Of a stretch of DNA of 64,000 nucleotides, positions 8,344 through 63,800 are shown piece after piece. Each line of letters begins with the position of its first letter. The first letter of the stretch is position 1. Source of the stretch: Candidatus Latescibacterota bacterium (GTDB taxonomy: Bacteria > Latescibacterota > UBA2968 > GCA-2709665). The position numbers were made by a program, and so were the translations under genes. The notes under the pieces were generated by a model. The model did not search any database. It was not told the origin of the DNA and saw nothing but the letters and a program-made list of their open reading frames with translations. The stretch spans positions 416,001-480,000 of the forward strand of contig OZ244937.1 in the NCBI GenBank assembly GCA_965222075.1. Reading direction: 5' to 3'.

Positions 8344-9380
8344 CAGACGCCGGTGAAGGCTTTGGCTTTGTCCTCTGTTTTGGGCGGTCGTGTGGGGCGG
8401 GCGGCGCGCAGTTCGCCCCAGAGGGCGATGGCGATGCCCGCGAGGATGATGCCGCCGCCGATGAGCTGGGCGGGCATGGGTACCTCGCCCAGGATGAGGC
8501 CGGCGAAGAGCACGCCGGCGACCGGTGAGAAGGACGACGCGGTGGCAATGTCGGCGGGGCGCACCCGCTTGATGCCTGCAAACCACGCCAGTTGGCCACA
8601 GGCCACCACGATCCCACCGTAGAGGATCATCCAGCCCCAGAGCAGGGGGGAAAAAACGTCGGCGAAGTGTTCAAGTCCGAAGAAGAAGAGGCCGAGTCCG
8701 AAGAAGAAGAGCGCGCCCACCAGGTTGCGGAAGACACTGAAGACGCCCAGCGGGATGGTCTGGAGTTGCTTGCGGCCGATCTCGGCGCCGCAAACGAGGA
8801 GTACGGTAGCGGCCAGGGCGAGGAATTCACCGCTGCCCACCCCGCTTTGCATGCGCGCTGCCGCCATGCGCTCGGGCGACGCGCCCGTCTGCAGGATGAG
8901 GGTTGTGGCCACGCCGCCGACGGCGCACAACGCCCCCAGTACCGCGCTTCCACTCGACTTTTCCCGGTAGAGCATCCAGGCCAACAACAGGCCGAGGGGG
9001 ATTTCCACCGTCTCGATCAGGACGATATTGGTGATGGAGGTGCGGGAGATGGCCGTAAACATCATGGCCGGAGCTATCGCGCCGGAAGTCAGGGCCAGGG
9101 CTGTCTGTACCAGCCACTGCCGGCGCGACAGGGAGCGCAGGCCTGCCTGCCGCGCGGGGCTTGGCGCAGGCAGGCGCGCAGGGCGCCATTCCCGGTGATT
9201 GAGGGCCAACAGGGTCAGCGCCGCCACGAGGTTGCCAGCGAAAAGCAGGTTGCAAAAGGAGATGGGATTGCGGCCGTCTATCAGATGGGCCTCGCCGATT
9301 TCGACCAGGCGGGCTACCACCGGCGCGGCGGCGGCGAAGATCAATATGGCAATCCACAGATAGGTTCGTCCCCAGGTCAT
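8343..9380 (-). CDS. DMT/EamA family transporter
   Basis: About 10 hydrophobic helices in two EamA-like halves (LILGE, QLIGGGIILAG). Confidence 0.85.
   Translation of the reverse strand: MTWGRTYLWIAILIFAAAAPVVARLVEIGEAHLIDGRNPISFCNLLFAGNLVAALTLLALNHREWRPARLPAPSPARQAGLRSLSRRQWLVQTALALTSGAIAPAMMFTAISRTSITNIVLIETVEIPLGLLLAWMLYREKSSGSAVLGALCAVGGVATTLILQTGASPERMAAARMQSGVGSGEFLALAATVLLVCGAEIGRKQLQTIPLGVFSVFRNLVGALFFFGLGLFFFGLEHFADVFSPLLWGWMILYGGIVVACGQLAWFAGIKRVRPADIATASSFSPVAGVLFAGLILGEVPMPAQLIGGGIILAGIAIALWGELRAARPTRPPKTEDKAKAFTGV
9142..9174. mobile_element. 33-bp palindromic insertion element inside the DMT gene
   Basis: CCTGCCTGC-CGCGCGGGGCTTGGC-GCAGGCAGG. Removal restores WRPARLRSL. Confidence 0.85.
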
Positions 9381-9409
9381 CTCTTTCCCGATCTCGCAAA
9401 ATGCAGCAT

Positions 9410-10717
9410 CTATGGGATGTTGAGGGACCGCCGCACGGCGCCGTGTATCCGGTCTTCGGTGGCTGCCACGTAGGGCCCCGTGCGTTTCCAGTATTGCTGG
9501 CTGAACCAGACTTCGTAGCCGCCTTCGGGGATCTGACGTTTGACGGGGACATAGCCGACGATGTTGTTCGTATAGGCCATAACCAGAACGTTGTCAAAGT
9601 GAGGGCCCAGTTCCCTTTTCAGGCGCAGGCCGTGCTCCACGGTCATTTCCGCGGCGAGCGTGACCAGGGCCAGAGCGTTGCCGAAACGCGCGGTTTGAAC
9701 TTCGAATGGGATGGTCGTGGGGACGGGGATATTGCTTTCAACGCATTCGAGCAGGTGTTGCGCCCAGGCCCGGACAAACGCCCGGTCGTCATTCAGGCTG
9801 ATTTTTACCAGGTCCATGTCGATGGGTTCGGTTTCCAGGCCGAGGATGGTCTGGTTGACGGAAATCGGACCGGTTACCGGCTGGAGGGCATCGGAGGCGA
9901 CGATGCGGGCCACGGATTGGCCCAACCGGACGCCGATGTCACGGATTTCACCGATGTCCCGCGGTACGAAAACCTCCGACGCGGGGTCGACGGGTTCTGT
10001 TTTTTGATCTCCGGCGCAGCCCTGGAGGAAAAAGGCGGTGACACCGGGGTCGATTGCTTCCACGTGGTCATAGGCAAAACAGACGTAGTCGCCGCCGATG
10101 AGGGTGCCGCTGCGGCTGGTGGGATGACACGCATAGCTGAAGATGACGCTTCGAAGCCCGCCGTCGGGAGATTCAACGACAAGGACGGGCACGTCGTGGT
10201 CGTGAGGCGCTTCGACACAGGGTTTCCACTCGACGCAGCCTTTGCCGTCGGGCTTTCGGCGGGATACGGCGATATCACATTTTCCGGTCCCAAAACGAAG
10301 ACGCGCGGAACGCCGGGTTTCCCAGGCCGCACTTGCGCAACGGGTGACCCTGTCCATAAGTGCCTCGATGTACTTCTCGTCCAGTTCGCCGTGGCGGTGG
10401 CGGTCCATTTCCCGGATGCAGGGGCCGCAGTGGGTGTGCGATCCGCTGAGGATGATGGCGGCGGGTTCGATGCCTGTGGCGGCGGCAATGCGGGATCGCA
10501 CCTGGTCCGTGCGTTCATAGAAGCCGAGGATTTCAGCGCTGACGATGAGCAAAGGGGTTGTGCCGTCGTCTATGGCGATGGCGTTGGCTTTCAGGGGATG
10601 GTAGACGGCTGTGGAGGGTTCCTTGCGGGCGGCGAATCCAGCCAGATGGATGCCGACCGGCGGCGTGATGTCTGCGCCACCGACGCCGATGCGGTAGGTG
10701 TGGTTGGACAGCGACAT
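9410..10717 (-). CDS. Neutral/alkaline ceramidase-like N-terminal domain protein
   Basis: ADITPP, SHTHCGP, YACHPT, LQGCAGD, GYVP, EGGYE motifs. Confidence 0.8.
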   Translation of the reverse strand: MSLSNHTYRIGVGGADITPPVGIHLAGFAARKEPSTAVYHPLKANAIAIDDGTTPLLIVSAEILGFYERTDQVRSRIAAATGIEPAAIILSGSHTHCGPCIREMDRHRHGELDEKYIEALMDRVTRCASAAWETRRSARLRFGTGKCDIAVSRRKPDGKGCVEWKPCVEAPHDHDVPVLVVESPDGGLRSVIFSYACHPTSRSGTLIGGDYVCFAYDHVEAIDPGVTAFFLQGCAGDQKTEPVDPASEVFVPRDIGEIRDIGVRLGQSVARIVASDALQPVTGPISVNQTILGLETEPIDMDLVKISLNDDRAFVRAWAQHLLECVESNIPVPTTIPFEVQTARFGNALALVTLAAEMTVEHGLRLKRELGPHFDNVLVMAYTNNIVGYVPVKRQIPEGGYEVWFSQQYWKRTGPYVAATEDRIHGAVRRSLNIP

Positions 10718-10798
10718 ACAAAATGCTCCTTATCGGTAGATACCCGGGTCCAACTGTTCTTTTGCTCCTGGCCTTTTTGTCCGCAATACCCGTTGGAT

Positions 10799-12019
10799 TT
10801 ATTCCTTTTTTTGAAATACTGCGTTCCAATCAATACGCGCGGTGAATTGCATGGCGGCGAACAGGGTGATAATGCACAACAGGGTAATGGTCAAGCCCGT
10901 GTAGCCGGAAAAGAAAAAGGTGTATGAAAACAGCACGAGGTAAACGAATTGTCCCAGGCCAATTTCTACGAAAGCCAGGCGCGTGCCCAGGACCAGCCGC
11001 ATATACGAGGTCACGAGAAAAATGGAGACCGCCGAGGCAAGGACAAAGGCGTAGTGAATGATCAGATGGTCAACCAGATAGGCCAGCAACAGGTGGAAAC
11101 TGAAAAAGGCGGCACCGATGAAGAAATAGTGCATCGGGTGCAGATTGAGGCCGCGCACGATGGCAAAGATAAAGAGTAGAAAGAAAAAGAGAAAGAGGGA
11201 AATCGGAGCGGCGGAGACGACCTGGCTGACCCAGGGACCGGGATTGAGACGGGCCGGCAGGATCATCCCTATGTCAATACCGGTGAGCAGGTGGTCGTAA
11301 TGCCACGTCAGGGTCCAGGCATCGCCATTACGGGTTTTGGCGGTGGGGGACATGCTATCCTGGGGAAAGTCAATGGCGTCGAAGTCGGTACGCATCACCA
11401 GCTCGAAGTCCGATACCTGGTTGACATGGTGCCCAAAACTGTACCGCCATTGATCCATGCCCTGCGAGCGATAGGACAGGGCGATGGTTTGTTCCTGCCC
11501 GGGGTGCAGATGGATCGATTGGATGAGATGCCCGGCGCGAATCGGAAGATCGTCAACGGGCTGCTCGTCAACGGTTAGCGTGAACGCATCGTACACGGCG
11601 CGAGGTGCGGGCAGTTCCAAATCGAAGTCCACGGTCAGGCTCTGGTCGGTGGTATTGCTCAAGGTGTACGAGGCCGCGAATTGGACTTGATAGGTTGCGT
11701 ACCACAGCAAGCCCTTGCGCCGGTGCTCCAGGCACAGGTCAACTTCAATGCGACTGGCCTTCATCGTCAGAAAGCGTTTTTCTTCTACTGTGCGCAAGAT
11801 GGCTTCACCCATGGCATTGGTTTCGATATGGGTGACGCGATCCAACTGGTAGATTTGCGGTGCCTGCTGCGTCTGCGCCGTACCCCAGAGGTGCCCCACG
11901 GCACTTTTGAGCTTGTCGTCCTGTTTCTCAGTGCGGAAGTGGACGGTTTCACTCAAAATAACCCAGCCGACTGTTATGCAAAGGTAAATAAAGCCAATGG
12001 CGGCAATGCGTTGTACCAT
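10799..12019 (-). CDS. Inner membrane CreD-family protein
   Basis: N-terminal TM, periplasmic domain, C-terminal LHPMHY..IGAAFFSFHLLLAYL helices. Confidence 0.75.
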   Translation of the reverse strand: MVQRIAAIGFIYLCITVGWVILSETVHFRTEKQDDKLKSAVGHLWGTAQTQQAPQIYQLDRVTHIETNAMGEAILRTVEEKRFLTMKASRIEVDLCLEHRRKGLLWYATYQVQFAASYTLSNTTDQSLTVDFDLELPAPRAVYDAFTLTVDEQPVDDLPIRAGHLIQSIHLHPGQEQTIALSYRSQGMDQWRYSFGHHVNQVSDFELVMRTDFDAIDFPQDSMSPTAKTRNGDAWTLTWHYDHLLTGIDIGMILPARLNPGPWVSQVVSAAPISLFLFFFLLFIFAIVRGLNLHPMHYFFIGAAFFSFHLLLAYLVDHLIIHYAFVLASAVSIFLVTSYMRLVLGTRLAFVEIGLGQFVYLVLFSYTFFFSGYTGLTITLLCIITLFAAMQFTARIDWNAVFQKKE

Positions 12020-12060
12020 AGCAATTTATCCGTACTGTCAGAGCGGCATCCCTGCCGCGA

Positions 12061-13092
12061 TCACCTTGTCAGGTTGACCACAACCCTGCCTTTTTGTCCG
12101 CCCCGTAAGATGCGTTGTATTTCGGGTTCGAGGGTTTCCAGCGTGCGTTCCGTAACCAGGCGGTGCAACGCGTCGATTTTCCAGGGCCCCGCGATTTTTT
12201 GCCACAGGTATATTCGTTCGGGCATGGGACATTCGGCGGAGTCGATGCCATGGAGGCTGACGCCCCTCAGGATGAACGGATAGACGGTGGTGTTGAGATC
12301 GGCGGAAGCAACGAGGCCGCAGCATGTGACAATGCCGCGGTGCCGTGTGGACTTGAGGGCGGTTGCCAGGATGTTGCCCCCCGCGGTATCCACGACGCCT
12401 GCCCAGCGTTCCTTCAAGAGTGGCCGTCCACCTGCCTGCGCGGCGCACCGCGCTGCAGGCAGGTCGGCATCGTTGACGACATTTCGATCCACGACTGCGG
12501 TCGCGCCGAGGTCGTACAGGAACTGCGCCTCGTGGGTCTTGCCTGTGGCGGCGACAACCGTGTAACCCAGCTGGGCGAGGATAGCGACGGCGAGGCTGCC
12601 GACGCCGCCGGTGGCGCCGGTGACGAGGATCTCGCCGTGGTCGGGAGCAACGCCGTGGTGTTCCAGTTTGCGTACGGACATGGCGGCGGTGAATCCGGCG
12701 GTGCCGCAGGCCATGGACTCGCGTAAGGTGAGACCGTGGGGCAGCGGGACGATCCATCCGGCAGGCACGCGGATGTACTGGCCGAATCCGCCGGGTGTGT
12801 TCATGCCCAGGTCGTAGCCTGTGACGATGACCTCGTCGCCGGGTTGGAAGTTGTCATCCGCGCTTTCTTCCACAACGCCGGAGGCGTCGATGCCGGGCGT
12901 ATGCGGATAGCGCCTGGTGACGCCGCGGTGGCCTGTGGCGGAGAGGGCGTCTTTGTAGTTGAGGGAGGAGTAGTGGGTCCTGATCAGGACATCGCCCGGG
13001 GGCAGGTCATCGATGGATGGGTGCTCGACGCGTCGAACATAGGCGTCGTTCTCGTGGTGCACGACCAGAGCTTTGAAGCTTTGATGCGACAT
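12061..13092 (-). CDS. YhdH/YhfP (AcuI-like) NADPH quinone oxidoreductase, MDR family
   Basis: YSSLNYKDAL, PGIDASG, GTAGFTA, VTGATGGVGS, PFILRGVSLHGIDS. Confidence 0.9.
   Translation of the reverse strand: MSHQSFKALVVHHENDAYVRRVEHPSIDDLPPGDVLIRTHYSSLNYKDALSATGHRGVTRRYPHTPGIDASGVVEESADDNFQPGDEVIVTGYDLGMNTPGGFGQYIRVPAGWIVPLPHGLTLRESMACGTAGFTAAMSVRKLEHHGVAPDHGEILVTGATGGVGSLAVAILAQLGYTVVAATGKTHEAQFLYDLGATAVVDRNVVNDADLPAARCAAQAGGRPLLKERWAGVVDTAGGNILATALKSTRHRGIVTCCGLVASADLNTTVYPFILRGVSLHGIDSAECPMPERIYLWQKIAGPWKIDALHRLVTERTLETLEPEIQRILRGGQKGRVVVNLTR
12431..12463. mobile_element. 33-bp palindromic insertion element inside the YhdH gene
   Basis: CCTGCCTGC-GCGGCGCACCGCGCT-GCAGGCAGG. Removal restores NDADGRPLLKERW. 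Confidence 0.85.
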
Positions 13093-13123
13093 AGGCGGTT
13101 CCGTGTGTGACGCTGTGGCATTT

Positions 13124-14263
13124 TCAGGATAGGAATCGTGTGATTTGATAGGCGTCGATATCGGTTGTGAGGTCTTTGTTCAGCATGAGGTCGGCGATGA
13201 GTTTGCCGCTGTACGGGCCCAGCTGCAGGCCGGTGGGCCCATGCCCGGTTGCGAGGTAGACGTTCCGGATGTTGGGGACGGGTCCGAGTACGGGCAGGAA
13301 GTCTTCCGTGCAGGGGCGCAGGCCAACGCGAATTTCACGGATTTCAGCCGCGGCCAGGCCGGGCGCCACCCGGAGCGCTTCGGCGAGGACCTCCCGGACC
13401 CCGGCGGCCGTGGTGTGGGGTTCGAAACCGGATCCGGTTTCGCGCGTGGCGCCGACGACCACCCGATTGTCCGGCCAGGGCACCATGTAGTGGCCGCGAA
13501 GGGCGTTGATGATGCACCACGACGAAGTATCGGTGGTGGCGGGCAGGCCCAGGTGGATGATCTGACCGCGCTGGGGTTCTACAGGGATGTGAACGCTCAG
13601 CTGGTGGCCGAATGCGTGCGACCAGGCGCCGCCAGCGATCGCCACCTTGCCGGCTGAGATGGTCCGGCCGTCCGTGATGACACCGGTTACCGAGTCGTTT
13701 TCGGTGCGCAAGTGTTCAACGCTGGCGTGTTCGACGGCGAGTCCCCGGGCCTCGGCGGCACGGCGCAGGGCGGCTGTCAGGAGTCGGCCGTCAACGCGGG
13801 CGGCCTCACGGTAGTAGATGGCGCCCCGGACGTGGGCCAGGGCGGGGAAGCGGTTGCGGGCTTCTTCGGATGAGATTTCGTAGAGGTCTGCGGCAGCGGG
13901 CTCGCCGCGGTGACTCCGGCGGTTGAAAATGCGCCGGCGGGCAATGGCAAAGGGTTGCAGTTCGTCGTCCGAGACGGCGACGATCATCATGCCGCAGGTT
14001 GCAAAGCCGGTCTCGCCGTCCTGTTCGGCCCGCAGATTTTCGATCAGTCCGGGATAATATTTGACGGCAAGGGAGGCCAGACGCAGCCACGGGTCCGGGT
14101 CGCGGGTATTGGTGGCGGGAGACAGAATGCCCGCGCCCGCGTCGGTGGCGCGACCCGTGTCTTTCCGGTCGATGAGCAGGGTTCTGGCGCCGTCGCAGAC
14201 CAGGTGGTAGGCGGTGGACATGCCAACGATGCCGCCGCCGATGACAATGGCGTCATAAATCAT
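13124..14263 (-). CDS. FAD-dependent oxidoreductase (DAO/glycine oxidase-like)
   Basis: MIYDAIVIGGGIVG Rossmann start, VGLRP, ATGHG. Confidence 0.9.
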   Translation of the reverse strand: MIYDAIVIGGGIVGMSTAYHLVCDGARTLLIDRKDTGRATDAGAGILSPATNTRDPDPWLRLASLAVKYYPGLIENLRAEQDGETGFATCGMMIVAVSDDELQPFAIARRRIFNRRSHRGEPAAADLYEISSEEARNRFPALAHVRGAIYYREAARVDGRLLTAALRRAAEARGLAVEHASVEHLRTENDSVTGVITDGRTISAGKVAIAGGAWSHAFGHQLSVHIPVEPQRGQIIHLGLPATTDTSSWCIINALRGHYMVPWPDNRVVVGATRETGSGFEPHTTAAGVREVLAEALRVAPGLAAAEIREIRVGLRPCTEDFLPVLGPVPNIRNVYLATGHGPTGLQLGPYSGKLIADLMLNKDLTTDIDAYQITRFLS

Positions 14264-14268
14264 TTTCG

Positions 14269-14326
14269 TCCTGTTCATCCATGTGAATAAAACGGAAGAG
14301 GGGAGCCGGTGATAACCGGACAGCTG
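14269..14326 (+). repeat. Remnant of repeat A plus the first codons of hicB
   Basis: TCCTGTTCATCCATGTGAATAAAACGGAAGAGGGGAGCCGGTGATAACCGGACAGCTG aligns with 7868-7925. Confidence 0.7.
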
Positions 14327-14372
14327 CTTGGAAAATAGGCTTTGGGTCTCCGTCATCCCCAACCCCTCCACA

Positions 14373-14587
14373 CCCCATGCCTTCGGCGAGGCCTTTTTCT
14401 TGATCGCCCAAGAAAAAGGCCGAAAAAGAAGGGCGCCGCTCAAACGCCGCGGGGGCTGCTTTTCCGCGAACCGTCCCTGTGGTGGAAACGGGCGTTTGTG
14501 CCCTGCGAACCTTTGGGGTGTTGCTGGACGGTGTTGCTGGACGGAAACGCGCGGAAAAGCCCCATCCCCCCGCACCAGCCCGCAGGC
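14373..14587 (+). repeat. Repeat family B (about 215 bp), copy 1
   Basis: Inverted copy at 16742-16987. Contains hairpin GGCCTTTTTCTTG-ATCGCC-CAAGAAAAAGGCC. Confidence 0.85.
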
Positions 14588-14754
14588 GCGCCGGTAGGGG
14601 GGTCGCAGAGACAAGACGCGGCAACGATTTTCATCATTATGGGTGCCCCGAAGGGGGCATGACAACTGCTTTAAACATACGATACACCTCAGGTATTGGC
14701 AATAGAATTGTTGGAAATTTTCAGGGGACGGGTAACGGACGGACGGGGTGAAGA

Positions 14755-14866
14755 CCTCGCCGAAGGCATGGGGATGAAGGGGCGGTTCGCGAACCGCCCC
14801 TACGGGATGGTGGATGTGGACGGGGTTTGGATTGTCGTAGTAGGGGCAACCCTCGTGGTTGCCCTT
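14755..14866. repeat. End of repeat B plus two GTAG-type REP hairpins
   Basis: GGGGCGGTTCGCGAACCGCCCCTAC and GTAGGGGCAACCCTCGTGGTTGCCC. Confidence 0.75.
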
Positions 14867-14873
14867 TCCCTGC

Positions 14874-14992
14874 GGGCGAGACGCCCATGCTCCCGGGAGC
14901 ATGACGGCCTTGTCCGACCATACCCTACCCCAACATGCGGGCGAGATCTGTCTGCCTGCGACGCACAGGCAGGCGCCCGCGCTCCCAGGGGG
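14874..14992 (+). repeat. REP-doublet repeat C, copy 1 (carries a 27-bp insert)
   Basis: Direct repeat of 17170-17262 apart from the insert. Confidence 0.85.
14947..14973. mobile_element. 27-bp palindromic insertion related to the 33-bp element
   Basis: TCTGTCTGCCTGCGACGCACAGGCAGG, absent from the otherwise matching site at 17242/17243. Confidence 0.85.
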
Positions 14993-15098
14993 TCTCTTCT
15001 CACACAAACTGACAGTTTGTGCTACTGCCTGCCGAGCAGGTCCCGGTCTGCGTCATCGACGTCAGGCAGGTCCTGGATGATAAAATTGAAAGTAGAAC

Positions 15099-15127
15099 TT
15101 GCATATTTCTCTCTTTTCCGGTACATT
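15099..15127 (+). promoter_or_regulatory. Putative sigma70 promoter
   Basis: TTGCAT-N17-TACATT, 10 nt before ATG 15138. Confidence 0.5.
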
Positions 15128-15137
15128 TGGCGGTACC

Positions 15138-16319
15138 ATGATCAAACGTGAGATTACGCCCCGTCTGGTCACGCTGTTTCAACAATACCCCTTTGTCACG
15201 GTGACCGGACCACGCCAGTCCGGCAAGACCACGCTCTGCCGCGCTGCGTTTCCCCATCTCAAATACGTCAACCTGGAAGCGCCCGACCAGCGGGAATTTG
15301 CCGAATCGGATCCCCGGGGTTTTCTATCGCGGCTGGGCGATGGCGCCATCCTGGATGAGATCCAGCGCGTACCGGAGCTCCTGTCCTACCTGCAGGTCCT
15401 GGCCGATGAGAAAGGCCGGAACAGCCTTTTCGTACTCACCGGTAGTGAGCAGTTCAGGCTTTCCGGTTCCATCAGCCAGTCGTTGGCAGGACGTACGGCG
15501 CTGCTCCGCCTGCTGCCGTTCTCGCTGGCCGAACGGCGCAGAACGGGCGCGAGCGACCGGGTGGACGACATCCTGTACTCCGGTTTCTATCCCCGGATTC
15601 ACGATCAGAAACTCGAGCCGCGTCAAGCGCTCGGCGATTACTTTGAAACCTACGTTGAGCGCGATGTGCGCCGAATCGGGGAGATCCGCAACCTCTCCAG
15701 TTTCCATCGATTCGTCCGCTTGTGCGCCGGGCGCGTAGGACAGCTGGCCAATCTCTCCTCTTTGGGCGCGGACGCCGGCGTCTCTCACACCACGGCGCGA
15801 CACTGGATCGCGATCCTGGAAGCGAGCTATGTGCTTTTCCAGCTCCCGCCGTTCTATGCCAACATTCGCAAGCGCCTGGTCAAATCACCCAAGCTCTACT
15901 TCTATGATGTCGGGCTGGCGAGCTATCTCATCGGCATCGAGCATGCCGGGCAGATTGCTACCCATCCCTTGCGCGGAGCGCTGTTCGAGAATGCGGTCGT
16001 GGCGGAGGCGCTCAAGCACCGGTTCAATCGGGGGCATCGATCCAATCTGTCTTTCTTCCGCGACACGCGGGGTTTAGAGTGCGACCTCCTGTATGAGAAT
16101 GGCAGCCGCATCGGCGCCATCGAGATCAAGTCCGGTGCTACCATTGCTTCTGATTACTTCGATGCGCTCAACCGGGTCGCAAAGCTGCTGCCGCAAATCT
16201 CCGTCCAGGCTGTCGTGTATGGAGGCGTGGATCGGCAATCCCGACGAGACGGCGAGGTGGTGGCGTTGGCAGACCTGAGTGACGTGCTCGAGCGCTTCGA
16301 CACACAGGATCGAGCCTGA
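15138..16319 (+). CDS. AAA_14 ATPase with C-terminal DUF4143 (PD-(D/E)xK-like) domain
   Basis: GPRQSGKTT, ILDEIQR, LTGS, KSPKLYFYDVG, ECDLL...AIEIKSG. Confidence 0.9.
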   Translation: MIKREITPRLVTLFQQYPFVTVTGPRQSGKTTLCRAAFPHLKYVNLEAPDQREFAESDPRGFLSRLGDGAILDEIQRVPELLSYLQVLADEKGRNSLFVLTGSEQFRLSGSISQSLAGRTALLRLLPFSLAERRRTGASDRVDDILYSGFYPRIHDQKLEPRQALGDYFETYVERDVRRIGEIRNLSSFHRFVRLCAGRVGQLANLSSLGADAGVSHTTARHWIAILEASYVLFQLPPFYANIRKRLVKSPKLYFYDVGLASYLIGIEHAGQIATHPLRGALFENAVVAEALKHRFNRGHRSNLSFFRDTRGLECDLLYENGSRIGAIEIKSGATIASDYFDALNRVAKLLPQISVQAVVYGGVDRQSRRDGEVVALADLSDVLERFDTQDRA

Positions 16320-16339
16320 TGGATTTTCTCTGGCGATAG

Positions 16340-16401
16340 GTGGCGCTAAATCAGGCTAATTCAAATTTAAATATTGATATAGCCTATTTCCCTGCTATAC
16401 T
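16340..16401 (+). promoter_or_regulatory. 46-bp repeat with embedded putative promoter, copy 1
   Basis: 16340-16385 matches 18316-18361. TTGATA-N16-TATACT. Confidence 0.6.
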
Positions 16402-16415
16402 CCGGGATCTACCGC

Positions 16416-16466: not shown

Positions 16467-16494
16467 CAATCAAACCAGAAGACGAGAGCTGGTG

Positions 16495-16750: not shown

Positions 16751-16987
16751 TTGGCGCCCCTGCCTTGCCGTCTCCCCCGGTTTGGTGTGAAGGGAAGGGG
16801 CTTTTCCGTGCGGTTCCGTCCAGCACCACCGCCCAGGAACGCCTGGAAGGTCCGCAGGGCAGAAGCTTCCGTTTTCACCCCAGGGACAATTCGCGGAAAA
16901 GCAGCCTCCGCGGCGTTTGAGCGGCGCCCTTCTTTTTCGGCCTTTTTCTTGGGCGATCAAGAAAAAGGCCTCGCCGAAGGCATGGGG
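16742..16987 (-). repeat. Repeat family B, copy 2 (inverted)
   Basis: Reverse complement of 14373-14587 with an extra internal segment. Confidence 0.85.
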
Positions 16988-55385: not shown

Positions 55386-56267
55386 TTGCTTGCCTCACGG
55401 TATTTTTTGTATCTCAGGAATACGGGAAAGAGAGTTGTGGATTTTGGAAATGTTTGGAGTATAACCAAACCTTATATACCGAAAAAAGCGTTTCCGCTTA
55501 TTGTATTTTTCTACAGAACCTGCATGAGAATTCGCTGCTGGTACGTGGGCCTGTGGGATCAACGGCATATCAAACAGACCGGGTTTGACCGACTGCCCCC
55601 TGCGCCCCTTCGGTATCGGGTGCACGGTTCGCCCGGGGTTGATGGTTTTTTAAAGGTGGGTAAAAGATGCAGTCAAGATATAGAAGCCGGGCTTATGAAA
55701 ATCGGCAGAGATCCGGGTTCGTTTCAGCACGTTCTGGATTTTGGCTGCGGTTGTGGGCGTACGCTGATATGGTTTGCCAACCGTTCGCACGCGTCCCGGT
55801 TTTATGGGACAGACATTGACGCCGAGGCTATTTCCTGGTGCCACAGCAACCTTGATTTTGCCCGGTGTCGCGTTAACAAGCCGTTGCCGCCCCTGGAAGA
55901 TCCCCCGGAGACGTTCGACCTTATTTTCGCAATAACCGTGTTCACGCAACTCAACGAGGAGTATCAGTTTCGCTGGCTGGGTGAACTCAAACGGGTAGCC
56001 AAACCCAAAGGCATTCTGTTATTGACGGTTCATGGTGAGCATTGCTGGCAGGATCTCGATTGTGAAGTTGCTGCCCGGATAGAAAGAGATGGGTTCCTGT
56101 TCAAAACCTCAAATACGATGCAGGGTATTTTTCCCGAATGGTATCAAACCGCATATCATACCCGGGATTACATTTTCAATAGATACGCCGAATATTTCAC
56201 CATACTGGATTATATTCCAAGAGGTTTGAACAACCATCAGGATATTGTCACCCTTCAAAAGGCTTAA
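55386..56267 (+). CDS. Class I SAM-dependent methyltransferase (start uncertain)
   Basis: VLDFGCGCGR, GTDID, ELKRVAKPKG. Confidence 0.85.
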   Translation: MLASRYFLYLRNTGKRVVDFGNVWSITKPYIPKKAFPLIVFFYRTCMRIRCWYVGLWDQRHIKQTGFDRLPPAPLRYRVHGSPGVDGFLKVGKRCSQDIEAGLMKIGRDPGSFQHVLDFGCGCGRTLIWFANRSHASRFYGTDIDAEAISWCHSNLDFARCRVNKPLPPLEDPPETFDLIFAITVFTQLNEEYQFRWLGELKRVAKPKGILLLTVHGEHCWQDLDCEVAARIERDGFLFKTSNTMQGIFPEWYQTAYHTRDYIFNRYAEYFTILDYIPRGLNNHQDIVTLQKA

Positions 56268-56295
56268 AAGGAGAGATGCATCTGCGAAGGACCGA

Positions 56296-57375
56296 ATGCG
56301 GGTTTTTTTTGTCGCATTGAACGGGCCGCTGGTTGCGGCCAGCCGCACCCGGGTTTTCGATTATCTCCCTTTCTTAGAGGCCAAAGGGGTTGGTGTTGAT
56401 GTGGTTGTTGTCATCCCGGATCGGCTGTCCGCCTGGGTCGATTCGGGAGGACGGTTGCGCCGCCTGGTCTACTACCTGCTGGTGTTGTGGCGCTCGTTCC
56501 GGACTGGGCTACGGAGCGTCCGGGCTGCTTCAAGATACGATGTGGTTTTTATTCAGCGGGCGTTTTTCCCGTCTCCGGTGGCCTGGCTGCTTCGGTTTCG
56601 CCGCCGCAAGGTCGTTTTTGACTTCGACGATGCGATCTTTACCACAGAGGCTCCTGAAGAAGACCGGATGGCCCGGCTTCGGACCTGGCATCACCGGCAG
56701 GCGTTGCCCAGGATGCTGCGTGCGGCTCATCACACGATTGTGGAGAATACCTACACCGGCGCCTATGCAAAGCAGCACTGTCCGGAGGTTTCGATTATTA
56801 CCGGTCCAATCGATACGGAGCGGTACTGTCCAGGCATACGGGAAGCGCGGTTGGAGGTTGTACTGGGTTGGATCGGCACCCGAACTTCGGTGTCCTACCT
56901 GGAGTTGATTCGGGGGCCTCTTGCCGAATTGGGCCGTCGCTATGCCCACCTTCGGCTCTGCCTGATTGGGCCTGGGGGATTTGAGGTGGAGGAGGTGCGG
57001 ACGGTGTGGCGAAACTGGTCTTTGGAGACGGAGGTTGCAGACCTCCGGAGCTTTGATATCGGCCTGATGCCGGTGCCGGATGACGCCTGGACCCGAGGCA
57101 AGGGCGGGTATAAAATTCTTCAGTATTTCGCCATGGGACTTCCGGTTGTGGCGAGTCCGGTGGGAGTTAACCGAGAGATTGTGGAGGATGGGCTCAACGG
57201 GTTTCTGGCAGCGGGCGATGCCGAGTGGGTCGACCGCTTAGAGAGACTCATTCTTGCTCCGCAGTTGTGCCGACGGATGGGAGAGGCAGGATGCCGGAAG
57301 ATGGAGGCATGCTATTCCCTCAACCGGAGCAGCCGGCGGCTCCTGCGCATCCTGGAATCTGTTGTGGACGGGTAA
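56296..57375 (+). CDS. Glycosyltransferase family 4
   Basis: DFDDAI, GKGGYKILQY, LPVVASPVG. Confidence 0.88.
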   Translation: MRVFFVALNGPLVAASRTRVFDYLPFLEAKGVGVDVVVVIPDRLSAWVDSGGRLRRLVYYLLVLWRSFRTGLRSVRAASRYDVVFIQRAFFPSPVAWLLRFRRRKVVFDFDDAIFTTEAPEEDRMARLRTWHHRQALPRMLRAAHHTIVENTYTGAYAKQHCPEVSIITGPIDTERYCPGIREARLEVVLGWIGTRTSVSYLELIRGPLAELGRRYAHLRLCLIGPGGFEVEEVRTVWRNWSLETEVADLRSFDIGLMPVPDDAWTRGKGGYKILQYFAMGLPVVASPVGVNREIVEDGLNGFLAAGDAEWVDRLERLILAPQLCRRMGEAGCRKMEACYSLNRSSRRLLRILESVVDG

Positions 57376-57384
57376 TAGAACGCT

Positions 57385-58602
57385 TTGGAAAGGATCCGCA
57401 ATCTTAAACCGGTGCGGGTGGTCCGGGTGATCGACCGCCTGAATGTGGGGGGACCGACCCACCACGTGACGCTCCTTGCCAGAGGCTTGGGAGCACGGGG
57501 CTACGAGACGGTGCTGACAAAGGGTCAGGTGGCGCAGGGCGAGGTGGAGATGGAGGATGTGGTCCGCCAGGCAGGGGTGCAGCCGCAAGAGATTGAGGGG
57601 CTGGGGCGGGCGATTTCTCCGCTTCAGGATGTACAGGCTTTTTGGGGCCTCTACCGGCTGATGCGGCGGTTTCGCCCGCAGGTGGTTCACACCCATAAAG
57701 CGAAGGCAGGCGTGCTGGGTCGGCTGGCGGCCCGGCTGGCCGGGGTGCCGGTGGTGGTTCACACCTTTCACGGGCATGTTTTTCGAGGATATTTTTCGCG
57801 CTGGAAGAGCGGCCTGATTGTGCTGGTTGAGCGGCTGCTGGCGCAGTGTACCGATGCGGTTGTTGCCGTGAGCCGGCCGCTGAGACAGGACCTCCTCTCT
57901 TTCCGGATTGCCCGGCCACCACGGCTGAAGGCCATTCCCCTGGGACTCCGTCTGGAGCCTTTTCTGGCATGCAGGCATACCGATGGTGGTTTCCGAGCGG
58001 AATTGGGGTTTGAGCCGTGTGCGCCCCTGGTGGGTATGCTCCCGCGGTTGGTCCCGATCAAAGGGGTCGATGTCTTTCTAAGGGCGGCACAGCAGGTGGT
58101 GCAGGAGATGCCGGAGGTGCGGTTTGTGGTGGTTGGAGACGGGGAACTCCGGGGGGGGTTAGAAGCACTGGCCCGCCGGTTGGGCCTTGAAGCGCAGGTC
58201 TGTTTTACAGGGTTCCGGCGGGATACGGACAGGATTTACGCCGCCTTGGATCTGGTGGCCCTTTCCTCTTTTAACGAAGGGCTGCCTGTCTCGTTGATTG
58301 AGGCCCTTGCTTCGGGGTGTTATGTGGTGGCCACCCGGGTAGGCGGAGTCTCGGATCTGGTGGTGTCGGAGCGGGTGGGGCTGACGGTTGCACCGGGGGA
58401 CGCCGGTGCTTTGGCCGGGGCGATGTTACAGGCTTTGAGGGGACGCCGCCGGGTGCCGTTGGAAGAGCGCAAGCGGGTGGGGGAACGCTATGGGATCGAT
58501 CGCTTAATGGAAGATGTGGATCGCCTCTATCGGTTACTTCTCGAAGGCAAGCAGAGCACGGGCAACGCCCCGGGCGTCTGTTGGGAGAGGACGAAAGCAT
58601 GA
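57385..58602 (+). CDS. Glycosyltransferase family 4
   Basis: RLNVGGP, HTFHGH, EGLPVSLIEA. Confidence 0.9.
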   Translation: MERIRNLKPVRVVRVIDRLNVGGPTHHVTLLARGLGARGYETVLTKGQVAQGEVEMEDVVRQAGVQPQEIEGLGRAISPLQDVQAFWGLYRLMRRFRPQVVHTHKAKAGVLGRLAARLAGVPVVVHTFHGHVFRGYFSRWKSGLIVLVERLLAQCTDAVVAVSRPLRQDLLSFRIARPPRLKAIPLGLRLEPFLACRHTDGGFRAELGFEPCAPLVGMLPRLVPIKGVDVFLRAAQQVVQEMPEVRFVVVGDGELRGGLEALARRLGLEAQVCFTGFRRDTDRIYAALDLVALSSFNEGLPVSLIEALASGCYVVATRVGGVSDLVVSERVGLTVAPGDAGALAGAMLQALRGRRRVPLEERKRVGERYGIDRLMEDVDRLYRLLLEGKQSTGNAPGVCWERTKA

Positions 58603-59573
58603 AGGTTTTGATCACGGGAGGTGCAGGGTTTATCGGGTCGCATCTGGCCGAACGGCTCTTGAACCAGAATGACGAAGTCTACGTGATTGATGATTTGTCG
58701 ACGGGGAGTCTGGACAATATTCGACACCTGGAGGATAACCCCCGGTTTCATCTGAAGATCGGTACAGTGCTGGACAGGGAGGTGATGGAACCCCTGGTAG
58801 ATGGGTGCAACCTCATCTATCACCTGGCCGCTGCGGTAGGGGTCGAGTATATTATTGAAAATCCTCTCCATTCTCTGCTCAACAATATCCGGGGCACCGA
58901 GGTGGTCTTGGAGCTGGCCAATAAGCGGAAGACAAAGGTCATCCTCGCGTCGACCTCTGAGATTTATGGAAAAAAGAACGGGAAGGTGCCCTTTCGGGAA
59001 GACGACGACCGGGTGCTGGGGCCCACGACGGTCATCCGCTGGAGTTATTCCACATCGAAGGCGGTGGATGAGTACTTTGCGCTGGCCTACTGGCGGGAGA
59101 AGAAGCTGCCGGTGGTGATTGTCCGGTTTTTCAACGTGGTCGGCTCCCGGCAGACCGGATACTACGGGAATGTGGTGCCCCGGTTTATCAGACAGGCCCT
59201 GCTGGGGCATCCCATCGCCGTGCACGGCGATGGGGAGCAGCGGCGGTGTTTTACCGATATCGAGGATGCCTTAGAGGGTCTGATCGCCTTAGCCGAACAC
59301 CCCGATGCATCTGGTGAGATCTTCAACTTAGGGTCCAATTTTGAGACCAATGAGATCAGCATTAAAGATCTGGCCCATAAGATCAAGATGTTGACCGATA
59401 GCGATTCGGGCGTTGAGTTTGTGCCTTATGAAAAGGCTTTTGCAAACGGCTGGTACGAAGATCTCCACTACCGGGTGCCCAACCTGGATAAGATTCGGTC
59501 ATTCATAGGCTACGATCCCAAGGTAGACTTAGATACAACGCTGCGGAAGATTATCATATATTATGAGTCTTAA
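58599..59573 (+). CDS. NAD-dependent nucleotide-sugar epimerase/dehydratase
   Basis: ITGGAGFIGSH, STSEIYG, YSTSK. Confidence 0.92.
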   Translation: MKVLITGGAGFIGSHLAERLLNQNDEVYVIDDLSTGSLDNIRHLEDNPRFHLKIGTVLDREVMEPLVDGCNLIYHLAAAVGVEYIIENPLHSLLNNIRGTEVVLELANKRKTKVILASTSEIYGKKNGKVPFREDDDRVLGPTTVIRWSYSTSKAVDEYFALAYWREKKLPVVIVRFFNVVGSRQTGYYGNVVPRFIRQALLGHPIAVHGDGEQRRCFTDIEDALEGLIALAEHPDASGEIFNLGSNFETNEISIKDLAHKIKMLTDSDSGVEFVPYEKAFANGWYEDLHYRVPNLDKIRSFIGYDPKVDLDTTLRKIIIYYES

Positions 59574-59597
59574 GCAAGGTCCATCCGGGCGCCGTCT

Positions 59598-60731
59598 TCA
59601 CCCGCCAATTGTCCGGTCGTAAATTTCCTCCAGACGCCTTCCCTGCACCTGCAGATTGTGGTTCGCCTCTACATGGGCGCGGCCGGCCCGGCCTATCTTC
59701 GCATGCAGTTCGGGCGACTTCAAGAGGGCATCCAAGCCTTCGGCCAGCCTACCCACATCCCGTTCTTCAGCCAATATACCGCACTGCCCGTCTATTACGA
59801 TCTCCGGAATGTCGGCATGGTGTGAAGAGACGACCGGCACGCCCGTGGCCATCGCCTCAATCAGCGCGACCGGAGCACCGCCTTCCGTATCCTCATCCGA
59901 CGCGGTTACGCTTGGATAGAGCAGGAGGGTGGCCTTTTTCAGCTCTTGCAGGCTTTCCCCATGCGGTTTCATCCCCAGCAATACCACGCGGTCCTCAAGG
60001 CCAAGGCGTTGGATTTCACGTTCGATCTCTGCGCGCAACGGCCCGTCCCCTACAATGCGCATCCGCAGGCGGGGATGCGCGTCCAGGATTTGACGGAATG
60101 CCCGCAGGCCGTAGACGTGTCCCTTCTTCTCCCGGAATGTTGCGTACATCAACACCACGGGTTGTTCCATGCCCTGCGGTTCTGAGGGAGAAAACGGGAT
60201 CCGGGACAGATCGACGCCCAGGCGCTGGATACGGATCTTCGCCGGAGGGCACCCCAACGCGGCCAGTCGCTCTGCCATGTGCGTACCCTCTGCCAGGAAG
60301 CGTTCCCCTTCGGCGAAGAGCCTCTCAAAACGCCGCCTCCAGGTTTTCTGTTTGGGCAGGGCGGACACATCCACTCCGTAGAAGGTTGTGACCATCGGCA
60401 CGCGGGCGTCCCTGCGGGCCTCCAGACACCGGTAGCCTTCCTGCCCGAAGTGGGCATGGATGACGTCTGCCTGCTCCTGTTTTAAGATGGGGGCATATCC
60501 GGCATACGTCCCCCGCATCTTCCGAACCGCGCGGTAGAGGGTCTGCCGCCACCGGGGCAGGTCCTCCATAGAATAGACGGGGTGGAAGGGAAACGCCTCC
60601 CGGTTGCGGACCGCCTGGGTCAATACCACCGGCCGGTAGCGCGTCAGACTCCGGATCTGGTCGTAGAGCCAGACCATTGTTGGCCCCAGAAATGGAGTGG
60701 CACAGTGTGCTACGGCAGGTCGTGTTTCCAT
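59598..60731 (-). CDS. Glycosyltransferase family 4 (WcaL-like)
   Basis: IHAHFG, EKKG, DTEGGAPVALIEAMA. Confidence 0.88.
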   Translation of the reverse strand: METRPAVAHCATPFLGPTMVWLYDQIRSLTRYRPVVLTQAVRNREAFPFHPVYSMEDLPRWRQTLYRAVRKMRGTYAGYAPILKQEQADVIHAHFGQEGYRCLEARRDARVPMVTTFYGVDVSALPKQKTWRRRFERLFAEGERFLAEGTHMAERLAALGCPPAKIRIQRLGVDLSRIPFSPSEPQGMEQPVVLMYATFREKKGHVYGLRAFRQILDAHPRLRMRIVGDGPLRAEIEREIQRLGLEDRVVLLGMKPHGESLQELKKATLLLYPSVTASDEDTEGGAPVALIEAMATGVPVVSSHHADIPEIVIDGQCGILAEERDVGRLAEGLDALLKSPELHAKIGRAGRAHVEANHNLQVQGRRLEEIYDRTIGG

Positions 60732-60872
60732 ACGCCATCCTCATTGCAGACATCAACCGGTTGTGTGCGCACAGCATGGGCTGGAAGGGTATGATGCATC
60801 AGGAGGTGCTGGAAGTCAAGGACATGTTGGATTGAAAAGGTGGGCGATGCATACGGTGATGGATTTGGAGGG

Positions 60873-63800
60873 ATGTTTTTGAATCGGATCAACGTTCTTC
60901 TCCGCGCCTCGATCTATTTGATTTTGGCCCTCAGGCCGGGGGCGGCAGCGGCCCAGGCCGTCTCCGGCGAGCCCCGGCTGGTGTCGTCCGGTCCGGAGGG
61001 CGTGGTGGTGGAGATCAGCGCCCGGGATTATGGGTTGCGGCGCGTTGTGCTGGACGGCCGGGCGTTTGACCGGGTGGACCTGCCCGGTGCGGTCTGGTCG
61101 CCCGAGCCGGGGGCCCCGGCCGTGCCTGTGCGGGGGCTGTTGCTCGGGGTGCCCCACGGGGCCGAGGTTTCGGTTGAGGTGGTCGATGCGGCCTACGATG
61201 AGGTGCCGGGTGTGGACCTGATGCCGGTGCCTGCCTGCGCCGCGTTGGGCGCGGCAGGCAGGCCGGAGACGCAGTTTGTCGGGCGTGAGCATGTCCAGCA
61301 GCGCTACGAACCGGCCCCGGCGGTTTACGGCCGGGATCGGTTTTATCCGGCGCAGCAGGCGGTGATCACCCGAACGGGTCTGATGCGCGATCAGCGTGTG
61401 GTTGGGGTGTCTCTGCGGCCGATTCAGTACCATCCGGTTCGCAGGGTGCTCCGAATTGCCAGGCGGCTGCGGGTGCGGGTGCGGTTTCTGGAAAGGGGAC
61501 CGGGCAGGCCGCTCTTGCGTCCGGCCGATGGGGGCGCTGAGGGGGCGTTGGAGCCGATCTATCGAAAGGCGCTTCTGAACGCCGAGCAGGCCCGGGCCTG
61601 GCGGGGGCATCCCGCAGGGGGGCAAGGCCTCCGGAAGGTCCAGCCGGACTGGTATGACCCTGAAGGGACCTATTATAAGCTGCGCATCCGGGAGGATGGG
61701 CTGTATGGACTGGATGCGGAATGGTTTGCCGCCTCAGGGATTGACCTGGGGGCGGGGGGCTTGGGACGGCTGAAGCTTTTCCTGAACGGGGAGGAGGTTG
61801 CGCTGGCGGTTCGGGACGGGGGAGATGGACGGTTGGACGCGGGGGACAGGGTGTTCTTTTATGGGCGGTTCCGGCGGGCGCCCGACCGGGGCTTTGAGAA
61901 CGAATTTGGACGGGAAAACGTGTACTGGCTCACCTCAGACGGAGGGCCGGGCCGGCACTTCCGTCCCGTCAATGCGTCGCCCCAAAGCGGGTTGCCGGAG
62001 GCAGATCGGTTTGCGGCGGTGGTGCACGCGGAGGTTGATTCGATCTACGATCCCCTGGGACTGGCCGCGGATGTCCGGCGGGACCACTGGTACTGGGGGC
62101 GCACGGGGTCGCCCCGGCCGGGGCTTCAGGAATTTCCCGTGACGGTGCCGGTTCTTCTACCGGGGCTGGACCGGGAATCGGCACAGACCGCCCGCATCCG
62201 GGTGGGGATGCACGGGTTGACCAGCCTGCCGGGGCCGCACCCCGACCATTTGAGTGTGGTGCGCCTGGCAAATGGCACGGTGGTTTCCGAAGACCGCTGG
62301 GACGGGCAGACGGCGTTTGTGGCCAGCGGTGAGGTACCGGTTACGGAACTGGGGGATACGGTCCGGGTGACGCTGGCCACGCCCGGCTCTGTGGATTTTC
62401 CGGAACTCCATGTGGACCATGTGCTGCTGAACTGGGTTGAGATTACCTACCCCCGGCGCTACGAGGCGACGGAGGGCACCCTGCTTTTCGATCCGGGAAC
62501 GGCCGAGGGCCGCACGTTTTCGGTTGGGGGATTCCGGGCGCCGTCGGTATTGGTCTTCGGCCTGGAGCAGGAGCTTATCCTGGAGGGGGTGGAGGTGGTG
62601 GAAGACGGGGCGGGTTACCGGGCGCGGTTTGAAGTGGGTGGGGGGGGGGTGTTTCTGGCGGTCGATTCCACAGCGGTCCGGCGTCCGGATGCGGCAGAGG
62701 TGGATGCGGCTTCCAACCTGCGGGGCGAACGGTCCGGCGCGGACTATCTGATTGTGACGCATCCCCTCCTCCAGGCGGAGGCGGAGCGGCTGGCGGAGCA
62801 CCGGCGGGAAGGGGGATTGAGCGTGCAGGTGGTGTACGTGACCGATATTTACGACGAATTTGCCTTTGGGCAGGTCGTTCCGGAGGCTATCCGGGCGTTT
62901 ATGATCCACGCATTCGAGACCTGGACACAGCGGCCGATCTATCTGCTGCTGTTCGGCCGGGCGAGTTTCGACTACCGGGATAACTTCGGACAGGCCAGGG
63001 AGGGACGGCGAAATCTTGTTCCGGCACTCCCCTTCCAGCGCACCCGGCGAGGGCTGGCATACACAGACCACCGCTTCGGGACGGTGGCCGGGGAGGATGC
63101 GTTCCTGGATGTGTTCGTGGGGCGGTTTTCGGTGACCAGTACCGGTGAGGCGGAGAAGGTGGTGCAAAAGGTGATCCGCTACGACAGTGCCCCGCATGGG
63201 CGCTGGCGGGACCGGGTGCTCTACATGGCCAACTACGAGGTCGTTCCCTCGGTCTACGCAGCGCCGAGCGATTCCTTAGCGGCGCTGTACACCGAACCGC
63301 TGGGCCTGGAGACGTTCAAGGTCTACAACCGGATGGATACGCCGCCGGAGCCGAATGAGGATACCCGGGAGGTGATCCGGCAGATCAACGAGGGGCGGCT
63401 GGTGGTCAATTTTACCGGGCATGGAAGCGCTGCGATTATGGCGTTCTTTTTGCGGGGCACCTTCCAGCAGCGCTACTACAACTATATGACACAGATCGTG
63501 AATGGAGACCGGCTGCCGCTGGTGGTGGCCATGTCGTGTTTAAACGGCCTGTACGCGGACCCGACACTGGTCTGTCTGGCCGAGGAGATGACCAAAAAAA
63601 CGGACGGAGGGGCAATTGCCTATGTGTCGGCTTCGTCCCTTGCGTTTGTGTCTACCAATAACGCGATCAACGCGGGGATGTTTCGGCATCTCTTTCGGGA
63701 TAGCATCCGGACGTTTGGACCGAGTCTGGCTCTGGGCAAAGCGGACTGGCTGACCGCCTCTCCCACTGCAACGGCATCGGCGTACGGGATGAACCTGATG

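Follow-up and report, generated by a model that had tools for sequence, protein, structure and literature searches.

Small CCTG-armed hairpins, probably mobile, lie in frame within protein-coding genes of a Latescibacterota bacterium

The stretch analysed here (the window) comprises 64,000 nucleotides of the genome of a Candidatus Latescibacterota bacterium (assembly GCA_965222075.1, contig OZ244937.1, positions 416,001 to 480,000). It encodes an EamA-like transporter of the drug/metabolite transporter (DMT) type, a YhdH-like oxidoreductase of the medium-chain dehydrogenase/reductase (MDR) type and a C25 peptidase, and within each of these three Pfam-supported genes lies a 33-bp palindromic hairpin in frame (Table 1). 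Searching the window for the pattern CCTGCCTGC-N(9-21)-GCAGGCAGG returned exactly these three copies, whose 15-bp spacers all differ in sequence, and no arm-pair match occurred in any of 100 dinucleotide-preserving shuffles of the window (0 expected by chance). TAA, TAG and TGA are absent from both strands of all three 33-mers, so that there is no stop in any frame. An earlier, sequence-only reading of the window had described three copies with identical arms and differing 15-bp spacers, inside intact open reading frames (ORFs) and without stops in six frames, and all of this was recovered; it had further stated that the copies use different codon phases, and two phases are indeed in use (2, 2 and 0), not three. 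The ORF of the C25 peptidase does not stop within the window; in the genome it continues to window coordinate 66680. The YhdH-like protein has relatives in the Protein Data Bank (1xa0, 5gxf and 1o89), and the copy within its gene belongs to the commonest subfamily of the genome (22 copies). Predicted junction peptides would include any that span ...DLPAARCAAQAG....

Table 1. Hairpin copies, their degenerate relatives and the host genes, in window coordinates
Feature	Positions	Strand	Location or evidence	Encoded residues or remark
33-bp hairpin, copy 1	9142..9174		in EamA/DMT transporter gene, phase 2 on the sense (minus) strand	(R)LPAPSPARQAG
33-bp hairpin, copy 2	12431..12463		in YhdH-like MDR oxidoreductase gene, phase 2	(D)LPAARCAAQAG
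33-bp hairpin, copy 3	61230..61262		in propeptide region of C25 peptidase gene, phase 0	PACAALGAAGR
Degenerate 27-bp family member	14947..14973		intergenic; recovered with one mismatch per arm	2 mismatches to the 27-bp subfamily CCTGTCTGCGTGCGACGCACAGGCAGG
Possible further degenerate copy, weak	15043..15070		intergenic; fuzzy scan	28 bp, one left-arm mismatch
Host gene 1, EamA-like (DMT) transporter	8343..9380	-	PF00892, E = 1.1e-21	345 aa
Host gene 2, YhdH/AcuI-like medium-chain reductase	12061..13092	-	ADH_N PF08240 and ADH_zinc_N PF00107	343 aa
Host gene 3, C25 (gingipain-family) peptidase	60840..64000	+	Propeptide_C25 PF08126 and Peptidase_C25 PF01364	1946 aa

The genome is a single contig of 5.36 Mb with 59.3% G+C, and the genome-wide arm-pair search that the sequence-only reading had proposed was run with strict arms (CCTGYCT...AGRCAGG) over lengths of 19-45 bp. 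It found 243 copies with 123 distinct sequences, mainly of 33 bp (93 copies), 27 bp (54), 30 bp (20), 25 bp (16) and 36 bp (13); with one mismatch allowed per arm, 394 matches were obtained, as against 59 in a reversed-genome control. Common to all subfamilies of this CCTG family are an outer stem of 7-9 bp, CCTGYCT(GC) / (GC)AGRCAGG, a one-sided bulge of 2-3 nt and a variable inner stem-loop, the sequence of which changes among subfamilies with compensating substitutions; one large group has a T in one arm where the other arm predicts C. RNAfold gave -8 to -25 kcal/mol for the 40 commonest sequences, and 207 of the 243 copies passed a test that asked for the outer stem and, inside it, a second stem of 3 bp or more. 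The picture of a non-autonomous element with conserved arms and a variable core is retained, except for its fixed length: the element occurs mainly at 27, 30, 33 or 36 bp, with variants such as 25 bp that are not multiples of three. The 27-bp relative at 14947-14973, also named earlier, is real and intergenic, because the DAO-family gene truly starts beyond it, leaving the element upstream of the start: in the long ORF 13124-15007 the DAO domain begins only at residue 252, and the gene caller placed the start at 14263. The 28-bp copy near it is uncertain, given the 59 fuzzy matches in the reversed genome. Elsewhere, three identical 27-bp elements lie about 150-165 bp apart at genome positions 1,139,014-1,139,359, apparently a tandem duplication of an element-containing unit. 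A low-G+C stretch at 4,022,100-4,024,000 holds eight CCTG elements, including one nested pair; judged by eye, it looks like a decayed insertion-sequence transposase gene, and the eight elements look like an insertion pile-up in dispensable DNA.

Orthologs of the host genes were fetched from related genomes and aligned by codon. The YhdH-like gene showed a clean 11-aa gap in 19/19 orthologs (61-83% identity), exactly these 33 bp were missing from 7/7 EamA/DMT orthologs (84-87% amino acid identity; seven genomes of one genus, g2), and the element in the C25 peptidase was missing from 11/11 orthologs, including that of the same-genus genome G001 (90% amino acid identity). The ortholog check suggested by the sequence-only reading thus returned a clean 11-aa gap for all three window hosts, and the 11 residues claimed per copy are found against every ortholog aligned. 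With a slash at the insertion point, the empty sites read ...GTG/CCG... for C25 and ...CG/CCTG... for EamA; at the YhdH site, orthologs have GCC GGC GGA and this genome has GCC GA(element)T GGA, so that the two flanking bases either mutated or arrived with the element, and G001 has no ortholog there. The closest solved homologue, 1xa0, is shorter across this segment of the YhdH-like protein, with two alignment gaps of 5 and 6 residues. Further element-length gaps were found for hydantoinase A, a xanthine-dehydrogenase-type MoCoBD subunit, AcrB, the second site in a UvrD-like helicase, a histidine-kinase HATPase_c domain and a TPP enzyme (5/5 orthologs each) and for Amidase_3 (3/3), and in host L153 an 18-aa gap in 5/5 orthologs corresponds to two adjacent elements (33 + 21 bp). 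Overall, 12 of the 13 elements tested appear as clean gaps of exact element length in every ortholog aligned; the remaining one, the first UvrD site, is ambiguous and lies in a variable linker. Among further host ORFs, 14 of 17 have Pfam domains, often flanking the insert on both sides or spanning it. These gaps and domains bear out the earlier claim of in-frame insertion into unrelated, real genes. The insertions are recent, because the element is absent from G001 (90-97% amino acid identity) at all nine sites where that genome has an ortholog. The UvrD-like host (L149; genome 1,988,302-1,991,772) also contains a host-specific stretch, VLPAPALPAGRP..., about 35-50 residues upstream of its first element (aa 497) and absent from G001, which may be an older, decayed copy.

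The geometry of insertion could be read from the genome itself, in which 200 bp on either side of each element were compared with all remaining sequence. A paralogous site was found for 43 elements and an empty one for 26, and in every pair shown the filled allele has exactly CCTG...CAGG, a single hairpin, more than the empty one, with nothing duplicated and nothing lost. Flanks carry no direct repeats beyond chance (a 2-nt repeat at 19/243), and the absence of a target-site duplication, noted earlier for the window copies, accordingly holds in the ortholog alignments, the flank statistics and the empty paralogous sites alike. Four elements are nested inside another copy. In oriented flanks the consensus is C at -4 and R at -1, then Y at +1 and G at +4, with a purine at -1 in 92% and a pyrimidine at +1 in 86%; complementary pairs across the insertion point are in excess (G/C 59 and A/T 47 of 172), and the C at -4 and G at +4 are weaker. 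The preferred target is the centre of a short, weak palindrome. About eight members of the 22-copy subfamily occupy one position, in one orientation, of a dispersed repeat of about 250 bp, of which about 24-25 copies are empty there. This repeat, which may be a miniature transposable element (MITE), a promoter module or an RNA, has about 33 copies in the genome and no Rfam match; two are in the window, at 14322-14577 and about 16777-16970 (genome 430322-430577 and 432777-432970). The fixed site corresponds to the junction of window positions 14434 and 14435, which is empty in that copy, and one other copy of the repeat contains a 60-bp double insert.

Genes were called with a home-made, dicodon-based caller (3697 genes, 80.6% of the genome), which places the start of the DAO gene where Pfam supports it. 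By this division 65 of the 243 copies lie in called genes, 158 are intergenic, 19 are in ambiguous 5' ORF extensions and one is on a gene edge, a strong depletion in genes (binomial p = 1.6e-73) that corresponds to a density of about 15 per Mb in called genes versus about 170 per Mb outside, or about 11-fold lower inside genes. The length of the copies in genes is divisible by three in 61 of 65, and in 44 of these 61 the distance exceeds 40 aa to the called start and 12 aa to the stop. Tabulating length modulo three for coding and intergenic copies, as had been proposed, revealed an excess of multiples of three in both, stronger in coding ones: among copies passing the inner-stem (hairpin) filter it amounts to 57/59 in genes versus 107/130 between genes (Fisher p = 0.005), and among distinct sequences to 95/123 overall and 43/64 of those seen only between genes, where one third is expected. 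Stops in any of six frames occur in 28/243 copies (11.5%), compared with 45% of GC-matched genomic segments, 46% of inner shuffles and 25% of palindrome-preserving shuffles. The in-frame coding copies use phases 0, 1 and 2 in 16, 8 and 37 cases, where the purine/pyrimidine target preference predicts fractions of 0.28, 0.41 and 0.31 (p = 6e-7); this skew beyond the target preference points to selection on the encoded peptide. The favoured phase gives x-L-P-A...Q-A-G, present in 37 of the 61, and the disfavoured one x-C-L...R-Q-A. The p-values for frame, stops and phase are optimistic, as the copies counted are partly clonal, and support from distinct sequences covers length only. Both the divisible-by-three lengths and the scarcity of stops extend to intergenic copies, which suggests selection at the level of the element for coding tolerance, and not only purging by the host. 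Intergenic copies lie between tandem, divergent and convergent genes in 108, 31 and 19 cases (110.2, 29.1 and 18.7 expected from intergenic length), without the preference for gene 3' ends of classical repetitive extragenic palindromic (REP) sequences. The suggestion that the element diversifies proteins in an adaptive sense finds no support here; what was observed is in keeping with selfish DNA whose survival is limited to places that tolerate it.

Among relatives the spread of the family is patchy and recent. Of 41 genomes in the order, nine have no copy and the richest has 227; within genus g2, where 15 genomes were searched, counts run from 0 to 223, and one genome of the sister family has 94 copies. 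The strict 33-bp form was found in 14/21 genomes of family f1, in 1/31 of family f2 and as three singletons elsewhere, among 168 genomes of the phylum searched, and identical subfamily sequences occur in different genera. In IMG/VR, the strict 33-bp pattern is present in 16 viral or proviral contigs (L213-L228; 55-72% G+C); the inner hairpin has the same layout in most of them, and four have one identical 33-mer. Some of these copies are inside long ORFs in the favoured phase; for instance, the elements at L224:11109-11141 and L227:1504-1536 each lie within an ORF of about 845 aa, at residue 156 (GLPAA.VTAQAG). Viral contigs are a possible route for spread between genomes.

Compared with known systems, the element is an untagged, coding-tolerant relative of the known kind of intragenic REP, and short intragenic REPs are already published. 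It is a short, imperfect stem-loop palindrome, high-copy, dispersed and mostly extragenic, as REPs are in the broad sense. Passages of Di Nocera, De Gregorio and Rocco 2013 (PMC3733652) describe GTAG/CGTC REPs as high-copy and mostly intergenic, with a minority wholly within ORFs of known proteins, to which they add residues, and short (20-40 bp) REPs inside ORFs of Opitutus terrae, Rickettsia conorii (RPE-4 and RPE-6), Thauera and others. GTAG/CGTC REPs, as described in the same passages, and the CCTG family are alike as stem-loops in the 20-40-bp range, in high copy and mostly intergenic, with subfamilies that show compensating stem changes; both decorate genes of the UvrD/REP helicase type, a UvrD-like gene in our case; and the CGTC repeats are described there without an associated transposase gene, which was likewise not found for the CCTG family. 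In contrast to GTAG/CGTC REPs, the CCTG family has no terminal tag, both ends being the same inverted CCTGYCT arm (CCTG/CAGG) and the flank logo showing only R at -1 and Y at +1, and neither a REPtron, that is, a gene for a REP-associated tyrosine transposase (RAYT) flanked by the same repeat, nor a preference for 3' ends was found for it. The divisible-by-three bias and the avoidance of stops in six frames are documented here for the CCTG family and are not reported in those passages of PMC3733652, nor did a term search of its main text turn up the former; its supplementary tables may bear on this point.

Rickettsia palindromic elements (RPEs) had been named as a precedent by the sequence-only reading, rightly as coding repeats; its remark that they are much longer understates the likeness, since short intragenic REPs of 20-40 bp have been described, and according to parts of PMC3733652 RPE-1 is a longer palindromic insertion and RPE-4 and RPE-6 are short. 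RPEs and the CCTG family are alike as palindromic selfish repeats lying in frame in probably functional genes (passages of PMC3733652), to which the 12/13 clean gaps correspond here; this is a likeness of behaviour and does not show kinship. The host of the RPEs is an obligate intracellular alphaproteobacterium, and the CCTG family belongs to a different phylum. The original papers on these elements are reportedly those of Ogata et al. A further case is the small dispersed repeat (SDR) of heterocyst-forming cyanobacteria, which Elhai et al. 2008 (Genome Res 18:1484) are said to have described as near-palindromic, 21-27 nt long and seemingly mobile, with nesting, no obvious target duplication and no identified enzyme. 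From these repeats the CCTG family differs in sequence and lineage. Such very small mobile repeats of cyanobacteria are also cited by Bertels and Rainey 2011 (PMC3116915). REPINs are short hairpin repeats of discontinuous taxonomic distribution, for which an HUH tyrosine transposase, present in single copy, is the supposed mobiliser in trans (parts of PMC3116915 and of Quentin et al. 2018, PMC6006769), and are described there as doublets of inverted REPs flanking or linked to a RAYT gene; in the CCTG family, in contrast, the filled/empty pairs have a single hairpin as the inserted unit. Its copies of 19-45 bp, without duplication in the 26 filled/empty pairs or the flank statistics, also do not have the features of MITEs, transposable elements of the miniature inverted-repeat type. 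MITEs usually have target duplications, and palindromic amphipathic repeat coding sequences (PARCELs) are longer than the CCTG element, which differs from both in being 27-36 bp and without target duplication. For MITEs, a size of 70-300 bp and terminal inverted repeats are given in the passages of PMC3733652; MITEs and PARCELs share with the CCTG family the property of being non-autonomous repeats able to lie in frame in genes (parts of PMC10969869, PMC5896051 and PMC2996958). Literature searches, limited in coverage, found no description of a CCTG hairpin family.

Combined with the above analysis, the observed insertion events, their geometry and the frame and stop biases point to a mobile REP-like hairpin that is tolerated in frame, a reading to which we assign a probability of roughly 0.78. 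A copy inserts exactly, mostly between a purine and a pyrimidine (G/C or A/T), without duplication or loss, into a site whose flanks form a weak short palindrome, and some copies have landed in other copies. Insertions would fall anywhere, and selection would purge most of those that hit genes; the surviving gene copies would keep the frame, without a stop, in apparently tolerant, probably loop-like segments, and would probably be translated into 7-13 extra residues, most often x-L-P-A...Q-A-G. Mobilisation would occur in trans, by an enzyme encoded elsewhere. The last point agrees with the sequence-only reading in so far as the element, too small to encode anything, needs something outside itself.

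Several results weigh against this reading. The split between coding and intergenic copies rests on a home-made caller, with the 19 copies in 5' extensions left ambiguous, and the copies are not independent, about eight being at one repeat site, so that tests on copy counts overstate significance. No orientation bias was found by replichore (Fisher p = 0.29, with rough orientation calls), which a lagging-strand mechanism might leave, or by the sense strand of the host gene (p = 0.41). As to the enzyme, the only RAYT-like gene of the genome (3,242,101-3,242,868) has an NF047646 match (E = 5e-15) that falls short of the NCBIfam cut-off (55.6 vs 80 bits), and its neighbours on either side are pairs of a GTAG-type REP and not CCTG hairpins. 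Among the 19 RAYT-like loci of this genome and its relatives that were examined, two have a CCTG element in the stretch fetched, in both cases within 200 bp of the gene. Four genes of the genome are flanked on both sides by CCTG elements, and none is nuclease- or transposase-like. Counts of PF01797 (Y1_Tnp) do not track elements (G019 has 136 elements and 0 matches; G038 has 1 element and 75 matches), and the genome G024, with 94 elements, has no RAYT-like match at E <= 1e-10.

No candidate mobilising enzyme was found in the window, as the sequence-only reading had said, and the search it proposed for a co-occurring HUH/RAYT or IS110 gene with arms nearby tied no enzyme to the family. The mobiliser may tentatively be sought among HUH-type single-strand DNA transposases, namely the RAYT-like gene or an IS200-like tnpA (2,071,883-2,072,350), with the odds against this guess. 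It is a guess from chemistry, because this class handles imperfect hairpins, inserts without target duplication and produces exact ends; HUH enzymes of both the IS200/IS605 and the REP/RAYT kind act on imperfect hairpins and insert without target duplication. Of IS200/IS605-type traits, the CCTG family shows the lack of duplication, with a target that is only weak and symmetric (R at -1, Y at +1) and the replichore result given above. The tnpA gene, intact and the only one of its kind, was rejected as a flanked master copy, as no CCTGYCT or AGRCAGG arm occurs in 2,070,437-2,073,796. A second Y1 match (3,018,501-3,018,743) is broken by a TAG, and the 25-bp element near it has three empty paralogous sites and is an ordinary insertion; around this broken gene, 3,017,000-3,020,243 is an AT-rich island in which the ORF composition, by eye, is unlike the rest of the genome, probably foreign DNA. 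An IS110-family mobiliser was likewise discarded: PF01548 had no match in the genome, with nine candidates scored and controls detected.

It is possible, with the odds running clearly the other way, that the CCTG hairpins are the cognate substrates of one of the RAYT-like tyrosine transposases of the lineage and spread as classical REPs or REPINs. RAYT-like genes are present in this genome and its relatives, with NF047646 matches and with HUH and Y..NP motifs conserved in alignment, and the imperfect hairpin and duplication-free insertion are as in HUH transposition. Within genus g2, a strong match to the RAYT-like profile (E < 1e-50) was found in 9/9 genomes with at least 15 elements versus 2/6 with at most 6; this association is confounded by kinship (family f1 17/21 vs family f2 3/19), and the case of G024 runs counter to it. 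The REPtron arrangement is missing, with GTAG REPs around the RAYT-like gene of this genome and a CCTG element close to the gene at only 2 of the 19 RAYT-like loci; the CCTG hairpins have no GTAG or CGTC tag, and intergenic copies do not prefer gene 3' ends. The RAYT-like gene and its GTAG REP pairs are instead a small classical REPtron, conserved in genomes G009 and G017, where the same repeat occurs at the RAYT-like orthologs. That GTAG-type REP has only four copies in the genome, one of them in the window at 15001-25 (minus strand), beside the 27-bp CCTG relative. A search with 9-bp seeds around the RAYT-like genes of three relatives' loci found no short hairpins.

An unlikely alternative is that the CCTG hairpins form a separate class of ultra-small mobile DNA that uses no RAYT or IS200 enzyme, would insert at palindrome dyads by an undescribed route and would have been selected on its own account to be translatable wherever it lands, by having a length in multiples of three, by lacking stops in all six frames and by giving a benign peptide when read in the favoured phase. 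A different and quite improbable explanation has no dedicated transposase: host replication or repair would copy the hairpins, for example through capture of a hairpin-forming single-stranded fragment at a break or at the tip of another extruded palindrome, or through template switching. The symmetric target, with its palindromic -4/+4 flanks, the nesting in other copies, the want of an associated enzyme and the absence of strand bias would all suit a host process; however, arm mismatches (C/T vs G/A) and one-sided bulges are faithfully inherited within subfamilies and the ends are exact at all 26 elements with an empty paralogous site, which is easier to explain with a sequence-specific enzyme, and congeneric genomes with the same housekeeping machinery range from 0 to 223 copies. 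That the repeat is not mobile at all, and that a functional module of coding DNA (such as a linker peptide) or a signal (such as one for uptake or recombination) arose in place again and again, is very improbable: the x-LPA...QAG peptide does recur in over half of the in-frame coding copies, but the same DNA is found in all three phases, in both orientations and mostly between genes, and orthologs and paralogs show whole-element gaps and empty sites, without gradual divergence.

Public reads were available as unitigs or contigs of four runs from four studies. Around the copy in the YhdH-like gene, unitigs break off within the element, for example with ends at 12456 or 12457 and one start at 12434, and no unitig extends for 31 letters to either side of a junction of the 12431-12463 copy. 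Positions 8442-9267 are covered by one X7 contig, with gaps that total 24 letters. Among the read joints listed, none skips exactly one element; a joint from 12462 to 14435, shared by the four runs, can be accounted for by filled copies of the 250-bp repeat at other places, and peaks of read depth at the element reflect repetition. An assembly or polishing artefact, to which the breaking of public short-read unitigs inside the element would correspond, is scarcely credible against the retention of frame in 61 of the 65 coding copies, the recurrence of the same subfamilies in many independently assembled relatives and the 16 IMG/VR contigs, and the coexistence of filled and empty paralogs in one closed contig. 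The gene caller placed no gene in the 2.9 kb of window positions 5009-7905, and the Rfam scan, at gathering score, found no family there or elsewhere in the window.

The reading of a mobile hairpin tolerated in frame offers a clean before-and-after view of a 33-bp selfish element adding loops to real enzymes and transporters; AcrB and a UvrD-like helicase are among the hosts confirmed by ortholog gaps, as are a histidine-kinase ATP-binding domain and a subunit of the xanthine-dehydrogenase type. In practical terms, the hairpins break short-read unitigs, and the lineage-specific residues that they add can mislead ortholog alignments. Two features would, if they hold up, be of interest to researchers of repeats: the biases in length and stops that extend to copies between genes, and the exact, duplication-free insertion between purine and pyrimidine, which, together with many filled/empty pairs in one genome, provides a defined substrate and target for an enzyme hunt. 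Should the hairpins prove to be the separate class of ultra-small mobile DNA described above, they would be a standing source of protein loop insertions across a bacterial family, and also in phage genes.

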